Shown here: one piece after another, positions 27,767 to 47,960 of the stretch
Layout: each line of letters begins with the position of its first letter
Position numbering within the stretch: the stretch's first letter is position 1
NCBI GenBank assembly: GCA_964394405.1
Contig: CAYMVY010000001.1
Coordinates: 102,546-166,545, forward strand
DNA: 64,000 nucleotides
Reading direction: 5' to 3'
Origin: an uncultured Gammaproteobacteria bacterium
GTDB lineage: Bacteria > Patescibacteriota > Patescibacteriia > Magasanikbacterales > UBA922
The notes under the pieces: generated by a model
Database searches by the model: none
Told to the model about the DNA's origin: nothing
The model's input: the letters and a program-made list of their open reading frames with translations, nothing else
Translations under genes and position numbers: made by a program

Positions 27767-27800
27767 AAACAAAATTCCTCCCCCTAGCAGGGGGAGGTGA
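27767..27800. repeat. Palindromic repeat TCCTCCCCCCTAGCAGGGGGAGG-TGAGGTGGGGGTC (family B)
   Basis: Near-identical element at 47344-47386 and a half copy at 44373-44395. Confidence 0.7.
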
Positions 27801-27809
27801 GGTGGGGGT

Positions 27810-28691
27810 CTACCTATCTTGATTCTCCACAATCGTTTGCACATTATAATCCATCATTTCAATATATCCTACCCTCTCCTGAGAACCCTCTGGATCGAGC
27901 GTTGCAATCGTAAGATTAGTATCTTTTGCAAAAGTTTCAAACGAGCTTGGCGAAAGTTGTGGTTCCAGATATAGTGTGCGAACATTGTGTTCGTCAATTC
28001 CCTGCTTCAATTGTATAAGATACTGTGGCGATGGCTCTCGACCTGGAAAAGGTTCAAATGTTGCAACCACCGTAAGACCAAAATGATCAGCAAAATACAT
28101 AAAAGAATCGTGGAACGTAATAATATTTTTATTTCTCACTTGAGCCATCTTCTGTTGCCATTCAAAATCTTTCTTCTTAAGTTCCTCTTTAAACCTCTCT
28201 GCTCGAATGTTGAAATCTACTGCATGCTCTGGGGCACGTAGTGATAATTCTTCTACAATCGTATCGACCATACTAAGAGCATTCGTGGGGTCCATCCAAT
28301 AATGTGGGTCAAAAGAACCGCTGTCATGCTCATCACTATCAGTAGCAGCTCTCAGTTGAATATTTTTATCCATCCCCACAAACACGACAGTATCGACAGG
28401 GTTCTCTAGAAATAAAAACCAATTATCAAGACCATGTCCAATTTCAAAAATAACTGATACCCCCTGCAATTGCTTCATAGTAGAAGCAGTCGGTTCAAAC
28501 GTATGAGGGCTGGCCCCCGGCGGAAGTATAAGAACAGTATCAACATCATCGCCGGCTATAGTTCGGACCAAATCATACAGAGGAGGAATAGTTGCAGCCA
28601 CCTTTAGCTTATCCGGCGTAGCAACTGTGCAACCAGCACCAGTGAGTAACAAGGCGATACTCAAAACTAAAAAAATACGTACCCTACTCAT
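27810..28691 (-). CDS. znuA: Metal (zinc) ABC transporter substrate-binding protein, ZnuA/TroA family
   Basis: Lipoprotein-like signal plus LILPPGASPHTFEPT motif. Confidence 0.85.
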   Translation of the reverse strand: MSRVRIFLVLSIALLLTGAGCTVATPDKLKVAATIPPLYDLVRTIAGDDVDTVLILPPGASPHTFEPTASTMKQLQGVSVIFEIGHGLDNWFLFLENPVDTVVFVGMDKNIQLRAATDSDEHDSGSFDPHYWMDPTNALSMVDTIVEELSLRAPEHAVDFNIRAERFKEELKKKDFEWQQKMAQVRNKNIITFHDSFMYFADHFGLTVVATFEPFPGREPSPQYLIQLKQGIDEHNVRTLYLEPQLSPSSFETFAKDTNLTIATLDPEGSQERVGYIEMMDYNVQTIVENQDR

Positions 28692-32284: not shown

Positions 32285-35650
<3,366 letters not shown>

Positions 35651-44339: not shown

Positions 44340-44372
44340 ATGATATAAAACGAAGAAGTTAGAATTAATTGT

Positions 44373-44414
44373 ATTCCTCCCCTTTTTAGGGGGAAGTCCC
44401 CTGCCATCAGGCAG
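44373..44414. repeat. Half copy of family B palindrome (TTCCTCCCCTTTTTAGGGGGAAG) plus second hairpin CCCCTGCCATCAGGCAGG between tsf and rpsB
   Basis: Read directly from the sequence. Confidence 0.6.
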
Positions 44415-44465
44415 GTACGGAGATTAGGAAAGTATACACTAAAATTGTACACTACCGAAGAAGAA

Positions 44466-45961: not shown

Positions 45962-47026
45962 ATGATTCAAAAATATCAGGACCTCAAAACAAAATACCTC
46001 TCCCTCGAAACAGATCTGCAAAATCCTGTGATTCTTGGTGATCAACAAAAATTAAAATCAGTATCTCAGGAATATAATGAACTGAAATCCGTAGTTGAAT
46101 ATATTACTGAATTAGAAAAGATTGAATCGACTATCAGTGAATACGAAGCATTGATCAAGGCCGAAGAGGACAAAGATCTCACCTCTCTTGCAGAATCAGA
46201 ACTTCCCGGGCTTATTGCACAAAGAGAGTCTCTCGAAAAAACACTCGCAGAGCTCACCCGACCAAGCGATCCAATGGACAAAAAAAATGTAATTATTGAA
46301 ATCCGTGCAGGAGCTGGTGGAGACGAAGCAGCACTATTCGCAGGAGATTTACTCCGCATGTACATGCGCTATGCAGAAAATAAAAAATGGAAAACAGCTC
46401 TTATCAGTGAGCACCAAATTGGAATCGGTGGATACAAAGAAGTAGTATTTTCAATCGAAGGGAGCGGTGTGTACAAGGACATGAAATATGAAATGGGCGT
46501 ACACCGCGTACAGAGAATCCCAGAAACAGAAAAAAGTGGACGAATCCACACCTCGACTGCAAGTGTAGTGGTGCTTCCTGAAGTAGAAGAAACTGAAATC
46601 GAAATCAATCCAAAAGATCTTCGTATTGACACCTTCATGGCAGGAGGAAAAGGTGGACAGAGTGTCAACACCACCTACTCTGCCGTACGTATCGTACATA
46701 TCCCAAGTGGCATGGTAGTACAATGCCAGGATGAACGATCTCAAACACAAAACAAAATTAAAGCCATGAACGTGCTGCGCGCACGACTCTATGAAATGGA
46801 GCGAGAGAAAAAACAAGCAGCAATTGACGCCAAACGCAAAAACCAAATTGGTTCTGGCGACCGCAGTGAAAAAATCCGCACCTACAATGTTCCCCAGGAT
46901 CGGATTACTGACCACCGAATTCACCAAAGTTGGAACAACATTCCGGAAATCCTCAATGGAAAATTGGACCCAGTAATCGAGGCACTGAGAGTTGCTGATT
47001 ATGCGGAAAAAGATGGTGAAATCTAA
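45962..47026 (+). CDS. prfA: Peptide chain release factor 1
   Basis: GGQ motif ([35 protein letters not shown]). Confidence 0.95.
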
Positions 47027-47033
47027 AAAATCT

Positions 47034-47960
47034 ATGCCCCTGCAGTCAATACAACAGTTGCAAAAATGGGGGAAGAATTATATCGACCGAGCCGAGGTCG
47101 ATATTCTTATTGCGCATGTACTTAAAAAAACAAAAGAATTTATTATTGCGCATCCGGAATATAAAATTTCGAAATTCAAAGAGTGGAAAATTAAAAGATT
47201 AATTACAAAGCGAGCGAAAGGAATTCCAATCGCTTACCTAACAGGTTACAAAGAATTCTTTGGACTCGATTTTTTGGTAAACAAACATACCCTGATCCCA
47301 CGACCAGAGACTGAACTAATAGTTGAAGCTGTTCTTAGTGCGTTCCCTCCCCTCTTAGGGGAGGGACAGGGTGGGGTTGAGGGTCAAAGAAAAATAATCC
47401 TGATTGACATCGGCACCGGTTCCGGCTGCATACCTATCTCGATTCTCAAATCTTCCAATCTTCAATCTTCAATCTTGACCTACGCTACAGACATCTCCAA
47501 ACCAGCTCTTAAAATCGCTCGCAAAAACGCACAAATACACAACGTCGACATCACTTTTCTTCACGGCAATCTTCTCGAACCCTTCTTAAAAAACTATGAA
47601 CTATTGCCTGCCCGCCGTAGCTTAAGCGAAGGAGGGGCTACTGGGTACGAACTAGTCATTACTGCCAATCTCCCCTATCTTACCCAAGAACAATTTGATA
47701 CCGAGTCTACAATCCAGCACGAACCAATCGGAGCTCTCGTTACTGACGATGATGGATTACAACTATATAAAGAATTACTTGGTCAAATTAAAAAATTACT
47801 TTCGACTTTCGACTTTATAGACTTTACGACTTTTTTTGAAATCGACCCTTCTCAAACTGAAAAGCTTTCAAATTATATCCAAACAATTTTTCCAAACTCA
47901 AAAATAGAAATCATCAAAGATGGAATGAAAAATGATCGAGTAGCAAAGATCTCACGATAA
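47034..47960 (+). CDS. prmC: Release factor glutamine N5-methyltransferase PrmC/HemK, carrying two in-frame repeat insertions
   Basis: IDIGTGSGCI SAM motif and NLPY (NPPY-type) catalytic motif. The ORF in the track starts at TTG 46992, overlapping prfA. ATG 47034 (MPLQSIQQ...) aligns with the canonical PrmC N-terminus. Confidence 0.85.
   Translation: MPLQSIQQLQKWGKNYIDRAEVDILIAHVLKKTKEFIIAHPEYKISKFKEWKIKRLITKRAKGIPIAYLTGYKEFFGLDFLVNKHTLIPRPETELIVEAVLSAFPPLLGEGQGGVEGQRKIILIDIGTGSGCIPISILKSSNLQSSILTYATDISKPALKIARKNAQIHNVDITFLHGNLLEPFLKNYELLPARRSLSEGGATGYELVITANLPYLTQEQFDTESTIQHEPIGALVTDDDGLQLYKELLGQIKKLLSTFDFIDFTTFFEIDPSQTEKLSNYIQTIFPNSKIEIIKDGMKNDRVAKISR
47344..47386. repeat. Family B palindromic repeat (TTCCCTCCCCTCTTAGGGGAGGGACAGGGTGGGGTTGAGGGTC) inserted in-frame in prmC (encodes ...FPPLLGEGQGGVEGQ...)
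   Basis: Near-identical to 27767-27800. Confidence 0.75.
47791..47827. repeat. Family C repeat (TTCGACTTTCGACTTTATAGACTTTACGACTTTTTT) inserted in-frame in prmC (encodes ...STFDFIDFTTFFE...)
   Basis: Read directly from the sequence. Confidence 0.7.

Follow-up and report, generated by a model that had tools for sequence, protein, structure and literature searches.

What is a palindromic DNA repeat doing inside the reading frame of a housekeeping gene, and is it preserved there as DNA, as RNA or as part of the protein? This question is raised by prmC, the gene for the release-factor N5-glutamine methyltransferase, in a 64-kb stretch of DNA (contig CAYMVY010000001.1, positions 102,546 to 166,545; in the following 'the window', with positions counted from its first letter) that was the source sequence of this study and belongs to a Magasanikbacteria-like genome of the Patescibacteria, or candidate phyla radiation, with 41% GC. 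A reading of the window from its letters alone, here called the sequence-only reading, had reported an in-frame repeat in this gene, and our analysis agrees: the sequence at 47343-47385, which carries ttCCCTCCCCtcttaGGGGAGGGacaGGGTGGGGttgagggtc, is non-random, lies in the prmC reading frame and is a derived feature, a dispersed repeat that was inserted into a housekeeping gene. Taken as a whole, the element is probably best explained as a repeat of the BoxC/PIT/TMECO kind that sits in a loop of PrmC, is conserved as DNA and perpetuates itself without benefit to the protein.

The element consists of three arms and two loops, which are arranged as follows, all on the forward strand:

47046..47960, + strand: prmC, release-factor N5-glutamine methyltransferase, assigned with Pfam, the PDB and an AlphaFold2 (AF2) model
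47343..47387, + strand: the 15 codons that contain the element, FPPLLGEGQGGVEGQ, delimited with orthologue DNA and the alignment
47345..47352, + strand: pyrimidine (Y) arm, CCCTCCCC
47353..47357, + strand: first loop, TCTTA (TTTTA or TTTCCCAA in orthologues)
47358..47365, + strand: purine (R) arm, GGGGAGGG, the exact Watson-Crick complement of the Y arm
47366..47368, + strand: second loop, ACA (TCA in orthologues)
47369..47376, + strand: reverse-Hoogsteen (RH) arm, GGGTGGGG, the mirror of the R arm

The first two arms form the hairpin that had been recognized as a palindrome, but the third arm at 47369-47376, which defines the element, had been overlooked. Running antiparallel to the R arm, it faces every G with a G and the lone A with a T, such that the 32 bases of the prmC copy contain eight perfect triads out of eight, seven of them C.G*G and one T.A*T. 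Such matching of G with G and of T with A is the rule of the purine-motif (reverse-Hoogsteen) triple helix. At the level of the sequence, complementarity among all three arms is thereby established; written as a single-stranded oligonucleotide, the CCCTCCCC-type motif reads 5'-CCCTCCCCTCTTAGGGGAGGGACAGGGTGGGG-3'.

This arrangement is not expected by chance. The hairpin pattern CCTCCCC-N(2-12)-GGGGAGG matches two sites in the window, where shuffled sequences predict none, and a generic finder for class II motifs, which asks for a homopyrimidine arm, its exact complement and a mirror arm in which no more than one mismatch is permitted, returned exactly two sites, the prmC element and a copy beside a gene labelled znuA, and nothing in 30 shuffles. 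The outcome was the same with relaxed settings (6-triad stems, one mismatch allowed). As RNA, the Y and R arms are predicted to form a hairpin of about -20 kcal/mol; the RNA-fold z-score of the prmC copy is -0.6, a measure that is uninformative on a sequence of G/C runs. When the window was scanned with the gathering thresholds of Rfam, all matches were to rRNA and tRNA and none lay at the element, and the prmC copy has no U-tract and no match to the terminator consensus. Programmed frameshifting was considered as well and dropped, because no slippery heptamer lies upstream.

Where in the protein does the translated element lie? The gene product is a typical PrmC, with the Pfam domains PrmC_N and MTS, a phmmer match in the PDB to Thermotoga maritima HemK (E=1e-26) and an AF2 model that superimposes on Escherichia coli PrmC (2b3t) with a TM-score of 0.87. 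The longest open reading frame (ORF), 46992-47960, has 322 codons and starts with TTG at 46992, whereas the starts of the orthologues are equivalent to the ATG at 47046. In the model, whose mean predicted local distance difference test score (pLDDT) is 86, the insert (residues 115-129 of P0001, the database protein that matches the gene product of the window; PrmC homologues are numbered with a P in the following) is a coil flanked by a helix (102-114) and a strand (131-138), and pLDDT falls below 50 at residues 119-127. It lies just upstream of the motif DIGTGSG. The sequence-only reading had placed it between the substrate-binding and methyltransferase domains; judging by the model, it is instead a disordered loop inside the methyltransferase domain, between the first helix and strand beta1.

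Aligned with T. maritima HemK, the protein has about 11 extra residues at this point, and the insert is absent from both T. maritima HemK and E. coli HemK in the PDB alignments. Among the 120 closest PrmC homologues, all of them Magasanikbacteria/Patescibacteria-like, 11 possess it (P0001-P0009, P0012 and P0048) and 109 lack it. Counted from RPETE to GTGSG, the linker in which it lies ranges from 26 to 51 residues, with 42 in the window but 29 in the shortest close relatives, such as P0010, P0014 and P0015. Because so few homologues carry the insert and the linker is correspondingly longer, these alignments identify it as a derived addition of about 13 codons in a hypervariable linker.

To separate selection on the peptide from selection on the DNA, the nucleotide sequences of the orthologues are decisive. 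We examined prmC DNA in eleven relatives, and ten insert-bearing genes could be read at this level. Apart from the window sequence, their arms are as follows:

P0002, P0004, P0007: Y/R/RH = CCCTCCCC / GGGGAGGG / GGGTGGGG, the first loop 3 nt longer in P0004
P0008, P0009: Y/R/RH = CCTCCCCC / GGGGGAGG / GGAGGGGG, the T/A triad displaced by one step in all arms, as T.A*A
P0048 (52% protein identity): Y/R/RH = CCCTCTCC / GGAGAGGG / GGGTGAGG, a second T.A*A arising from matching changes in three arms
P0003, P0006: hairpin intact, third arm with one mismatch
P0012: first loop 27 nt longer, element degraded

The A-containing triad thus moves through the element as a unit: it is T.A*T at triad position 4 in P0001, P0002, P0004 and P0007 and T.A*A at position 3 in P0008 and P0009, and P0048 has an extra T.A*A at position 6. 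This covariation of three arms spans species with about 50-70% protein identity. Among the six CCCTCCCC-type genes, none of the eight third-codon positions in the arms varies, compared with 217 of 274 in the rest of the gene, although these six sequences are not phylogenetically independent and recombination among them is evident; both loops vary in the same genes. The codons used in the arms are rare in this genome (GGG 18%, CCC 15%, TTC 26%, GAG 30%), and the differences in the third arm between copies are non-synonymous, from G to E and from G to R. Because the third positions are invariant, the codons rare and the third-arm differences non-synonymous, what the orthologues are shown to conserve is the three-arm complementarity of the DNA and not the peptide.

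The converse, namely that selection acted on the peptide, a Pro/Gly-rich linker, with the nucleotide pattern as its by-product, could invoke the similarity of FPPLLGEGQGG in 9 close orthologues. However, it would have to explain why third-codon positions are frozen on rare codons while copies differ by G-to-E and G-to-R changes, why the region is predicted to be disordered and why close relatives do without the insert. Moreover, no orthologue among the ten insert-bearing genes keeps the peptide with scrambled codons: every orthologue with the peptide has the nucleotide motif, and those free of the motif lack the peptide. We regard this explanation as the least credible of those considered here.

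Two further sites in the window bear on the nature of the element:

27777..27808, + strand: second complete triplex motif, CCTCCCCC-tagca-GGGGGAGG-tga-GGTGGGGG, with 8 of 8 triads (class II finder)
27810..28691, - strand: the gene labelled znuA in the sequence-only reading, from which we take the label (ORF list)
44374..44396, + strand: imperfect hairpin between rpsB and tsf, TTCCTCCCC-ttttta-GGGGGAAG, which has no RH arm

The znuA-side copy, whose CCTCCCC/GGGGAGG hairpin match covers 27777-27797, is intergenic and lies directly 3' of the gene, one base off the stop codon at 27810-27812. It had been given a span of 27767-27800, instead of 27777-27808, and described as near-identical to the prmC copy. 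It does have the architecture of that copy, but the T/A/T position is displaced by one in all three arms, and only 25 of 36 nucleotides (69%) are identical. As judged from this comparison, the two copies have their architecture in common, not their sequence. On the minus strand, the znuA-side copy presents a 9-bp GC hairpin followed by AATTTTGTTT, like an intrinsic terminator, and based on this consensus match it may double as one. The prmC copy differs from intrinsic terminators in being intragenic and lacking a U-tract, and the PIT elements of E. coli had no terminator activity in the earlier work that is summarized in PMC4666352.

The site between tsf and rpsB, which had been taken for a half-copy, does contain a hairpin, but an imperfect one without the third arm. 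It belongs to an insertion of about 58 nt in the rpsB-tsf spacer that is missing in relatives. This spacer is variable in its own right: it measures 68 nt in three relatives and 126-176 nt in the window (44340-44465) and at three other loci (L001 7342-7476, L124 7236-7369 and L130 1122-1297; loci from other genomes are numbered with an L), and each of the long spacers holds a different small repeat. By its sequence, it looks like a hotspot for short insertions.

Does the same architecture occur elsewhere? We searched for the pattern CCTCCCC N3-10 GGGGAGG N2-7 GGTGGGG and found at least 120 stretches with it in GTDB species genomes, as well as matches in viral contigs of IMG/VR. Among the matches listed are Cyanobacteria, Alpha-, Beta-, Gamma- and Deltaproteobacteria, Chloroflexi, Nitrospirae, Planctomycetota, Bacteroidota and others; 20 of the 153 listed come from loci with less than 50% GC, and, by a rough estimate, some of those in very GC-rich genomes could be chance occurrences. 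The pattern leaves the pairs that flank it on the outer and inner side free, and these positions can be read independently in the 135 distinct elements among the matches listed. At the outer position, a C:G pair is accompanied by a third-arm G in 104 of 105 cases and a T:A pair by an A in 8 of 8; at the inner position, C:G is accompanied by G in 56 of 62 cases and T:A by A or T in 22 of 27. In sequence terms, the triplex pairing rule is thus obeyed by elements of other phyla at positions that the search did not fix.

These results bear on the simplest alternative, according to which the element is a plain palindromic mobile element akin to the Rickettsia palindromic elements (RPEs), with a hairpin that matters and a G-rich tail that is incidental. 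The hairpin is indeed its most stable and best conserved part, remains intact in P0003 and P0006 despite the third-arm mismatch, and is all that the tsf-rpsB relative has. Yet the third arm follows the R arm position by position, both in the orthologues and in the 135 elements of other phyla, and a generic triplex rule recovers exactly these sites in the window. A relationship to RPEs finds no basis in size or sequence either. RPEs are about 100-150 bp long, specific to Rickettsia and devoid of triplex architecture, whereas the present element measures 32-39 nt, resides in a Magasanikbacteria-like host and has a motif found across many phyla. The comparison that the sequence-only reading had drawn with RPEs thus holds for the outcome, a small repeat that lies in frame in housekeeping genes and is tolerated in surface regions or loops, but not for descent. 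Overall, we find it unlikely that the hairpin alone is what matters.

A second alternative retains the G-rich tail but interprets it differently: a switch between hairpin and G-quadruplex (G4), in the DNA or in the prmC mRNA, might have been selected instead of a triplex. This idea was put forward for HPG1 and HPG2, two groups of intergenic G4 sequences in E. coli with 16 and 7 members and a conserved C-rich 5' flank, which were read as G4-hairpin-duplex switches with a possible hairpin or antiparallel triplex and gave G4-like circular dichroism (CD) spectra (Kaplan et al., 2016; PMC5100583). Judging from their descriptions, these 23 sequences are probably the same E. coli loci as the 23 BoxC/TMECO elements. 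Like them, the prmC element has a G4-capable tract behind a C-rich 5' flank: GGGGAGGGACAGGGTGGGG conforms to the canonical pattern G3-N1-G3-N3-G3-N1-G3, and its predicted RNA energy improves from -20 to -33 kcal/mol once G4 formation is allowed. However, four G3 runs are a feature of the prmC copy of the window and not of the znuA-side, P0008/P0009 and P0048 copies, all of which keep perfect triads, and the third arm matches T:A positions with A or T, a match that a G4 does not call for. In addition, nuclear magnetic resonance (NMR) of TMECO pointed to a triplex rather than a G4 (PMC4666352), and the HPG sequences are exclusively intergenic. A selected G4 switch therefore appears about as improbable to us as a bare palindrome.

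For a third alternative, in which the mRNA hairpin slows ribosomes ahead of the Rossmann fold to aid co-translational folding, or regulates prmC expression, it is instructive to ask whether other genes contain the motif in frame. An open frame spanning the motif is uninformative above about 60% GC; at 48-60% GC, five cases were confirmed with Pfam, such that the motif lies in frame in at least five further housekeeping genes:

L028: T2SSE ATPase, residues 473-485, within the domain, antisense
L049: PurL, between the FGAR-AT_N and linker domains, sense
L083: MetH, between the pterin-binding and B12-cap domains, antisense
L091: PFL-like glycyl-radical enzyme, within the domain, sense
L121: GltB, within GATase_2, sense

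In keeping with a role in the mRNA, some of these copies lie in linkers between domains (MetH, PurL), and the synonymous sites of the prmC stem are invariant. On the other hand, the insert is patchy among PrmC homologues (11 of 120), the motif occurs in both orientations in coding sequences and also outside of genes (as in the znuA-side copy, and always in E. coli), and a hairpin leaves the conservation of the third arm unexplained; purine-motif triplexes, for their part, do not form in RNA (PMC4666352). We consider an mRNA function somewhat less probable still than a palindrome or a G4 switch.

A search for further host proteins with a 45-residue concatenation of peptide variants as query gave one candidate and no match. 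In the limited literature that we searched, no in-frame coding copies of this motif class are reported, which is no proof of novelty. The copy in PurL (L049) deserves mention for another reason: at about residues 85-120 of the ORF, its G-rich arms are reiterated (PSPFGEGSGVGSCPGEGSGVGSCPGEGPGVG), which suggests from the sequence that slippage can lengthen the third arm inside a coding region. Elsewhere, in bacteria and viral contigs, the motif forms tandem arrays, for example with 4 copies about 155 nt apart or 3 copies about 340 nt apart, and dense clusters with, for example, 6 copies in 14.8 kb or 5 in 6.9 kb; the loci with such arrays or clusters are L081 (7349-7841), L050 (5612-6325), L136 and L176.

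How, then, did the element come to be present in some prmC genes and absent from others? The alleles are mosaics. Over the whole gene, P0001 and P0007 have an identity of 70%, which rises to 83% in the 231 aligned nucleotides that surround the element and to 88-98% in 45-nt windows round it. Conversely, the empty P0013 and the filled P0008 have an identity of 84% overall and 86-97% in the flanks, which drops to 12-66% in a block of about 200 nt at the site. This demonstrable mosaicism indicates that alleles become filled or empty when allelic blocks are exchanged, rather than through clean insertion or excision. Its patchy distribution among Magasanikbacteria follows from such exchange and from decay of the third arm. 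Filled and empty alleles display no recognizable target-site duplication, because their flanks are too diverged.

Among known systems, the closest are the potential intrastrand triplex motifs of the BoxC/PIT/TM class, which are known from E. coli, from cyanobacteria and from others (PMC4666352; PMC5100583) and which correspond to the class II G/C-rich motifs (BoxC/PIT) of Hoyne and Maher (2000), as cited in PMC4666352. The ITxF definition of this class describes a homopyrimidine arm of 6-15 nt, a short loop and an exact homopurine complement, and further a third, antiparallel arm with G*G:C and A/T*A:T triads after a loop of 1-6 nt. Both copies in the window have all of these features, with first loops of 5 nt and second loops of 3 nt, and two complete motifs are found in 64 kb where none is expected. 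By sequence, both copies are general class II G/C-rich motifs, and the prmC element belongs to the known BoxC/PIT/TM kind of repeat, albeit in an unusual, coding context.

The best characterized representative is TMECO, with the consensus CCCTCNCCC N3-6 GGGNGAGGG N3 GGGNGAGGG (Holder et al., 2015; PMC4666352). It was counted 3610 times in 262 proteobacterial genomes, has 23 copies in MG1655, is reported as always intergenic in E. coli K-12, is tied to elevated local sequence or genomic variability and was not found to accompany transposons, phages or plasmids; as oligonucleotides, TMECO elements form stable triplexes in vitro according to CD and NMR, the latter favoring a triplex over a G4 (PMC4666352). 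The elements of E. coli and those described here share the order of a 5'-pyrimidine arm, a loop of 3-6 nt, a purine arm, a 3-nt loop and a mirror G-rich arm, have similar second loops (TTA/CCG in E. coli, ACA/TCA/TGA here) and are dispersed on either strand in locally variable or mosaic surroundings. They differ in that the present arms comprise eight triads with a single T.A*T instead of the 9-nt CCCTCNCCC; neither window copy conforms to the strict TMECO consensus, which only the P0048 orthologue (CCCTCTCC/GGAGAGGG/GGGTGAGG) approaches. Furthermore, the host is a member of the Patescibacteria with 41% GC, and the prmC copy is translated in frame, whereas the znuA-side copy is intergenic like TMECO. 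A further comparison is with the RAYT-mobilized REP/REPIN sequences (PMC3116915), which are likewise short GC-rich hairpin repeats and resemble the motif in other phyla in forming opposite-strand doublets (21 cases less than 500 nt apart for the 153 elements among the matches listed). Unlike these lineage-specific repeats, the motif is near-identical across many phyla, and in the window it has no GTAG-type head and forms no doublets.

Several points weigh against our interpretation of the element as a self-perpetuating repeat conserved as DNA. The window contains only two complete copies, and in each 5-21 kb locus of the insert-bearing relatives the prmC copy stands alone; its multi-copy status in this genome is therefore thinly documented, the sequence covered being 64 kb, while the contig listed for P0001 has about 597 kb. 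To our knowledge, no mechanism of dispersal has been established for this repeat class. Recent spread by recombination, and not purifying selection, could account for part of the invariance of the arms, and the changes shared by three arms could stem from replacement by other genomic copies, which is inseparable from compensatory mutation. Lastly, dimethyl sulfate footprinting of the E. coli relatives in vivo gave no stable triplex (PMC4666352), and PIT elements in E. coli had no effect on promoters, termination or replication in the earlier work cited there.

With these points in mind, we propose the following course of events. On one DNA strand, the Y arm would pair with the R arm to form a hairpin of 8-9 bp, and the G-rich third arm may fold back antiparallel onto the R arm, generating G*G:C and T*A:T triads as the E. 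coli relatives do in vitro. A copy of about 39 nt would have landed in, or recombined into, the hypervariable and disordered loop before strand beta1, where it would be translated as a Pro/Gly-rich coil that PrmC appears to tolerate. Non-B folding during replication or repair may then favor local recombination, by which the element would be copied or exchanged. Its most likely role is that of a self-perpetuating structural DNA repeat that gives PrmC no benefit, where we infer both its spread and its action in vivo. A more far-reaching proposal is that triplex motifs constitute a pan-bacterial class of repeats that colonizes genes in frame, and that the three-arm covariation reflects selection for a triplex that forms and matters in living cells; this we advance tentatively, as a possibility that we would rather doubt than assume.

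The prmC genes of these bacteria contain further small sequences of similar appearance. P0032, P0045, P0072, P0111, P0064 and P0104, from other Magasanikbacteria, have different peptides in the loop before strand beta1, for instance RITNYELRIT, SFRPKRSEVEES and NSKFKIQNS, which look repeat-derived, and going by these sequences small palindromic inserts may generally collect in this loop. The prmC gene of the window contains another in-frame insert, LPARRSLSEGGAT at 47604-47642, which is an imperfect palindrome centred on GCTTAAGC. Its pLDDT is below 50 at residues 206-208 and 210-212 and averages 59 over the block 201-210; it is found in P0001, P0002 and P0004 only, has no further copy in the window and lies within a patch where about 60 nt agree with P0004 at 100% identity, while the whole genes are 72% identical. 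At 47449-47477, three tandem units of the heptamer AATCTTC and a fourth unit that precedes them by one base encode KSSNLQSSILT; P0007 has three copies of another heptamer, CAATCAC, at this position. Gain or loss of one AATCTTC unit would shift the prmC frame. The catalytic NPPY motif of PrmC reads NLPY here (ANLPY, 47670-47681), which is invariant in 35 of 35 aligned orthologues. Outside of prmC, the match to 23S rRNA (32297-35639) extends over 3343 nt, compared with 2925 nt in the model; the approximately 400 extra nucleotides could be an insertion or an intron.

As regards intrastrand DNA triplexes in living bacteria, the E. coli elements fold in vitro (PMC4666352), but have given no clear phenotype in the cell. 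When such an element lies within a coding sequence, it offers a natural experiment, because the degeneracy of the code allows selection on the DNA to be told apart from selection on the peptide. In the prmC arms, the synonymous sites are frozen and changes are shared by all three arms. If the more far-reaching proposal made above is true, this covariation would be evidence, by comparison of species, that living cells select for triple-strand complementarity itself, and would imply that a triplex, not merely a hairpin or a G4, forms and matters there. For the proteins concerned, motifs of this kind that are translated can create lineage-specific Pro/Gly-rich loops in conserved enzymes. The motif would explain odd insertions of the 'PPLLGEGxG' type in metagenomic proteins, and annotators and builders of alignments should be aware that such segments are repeat-derived.

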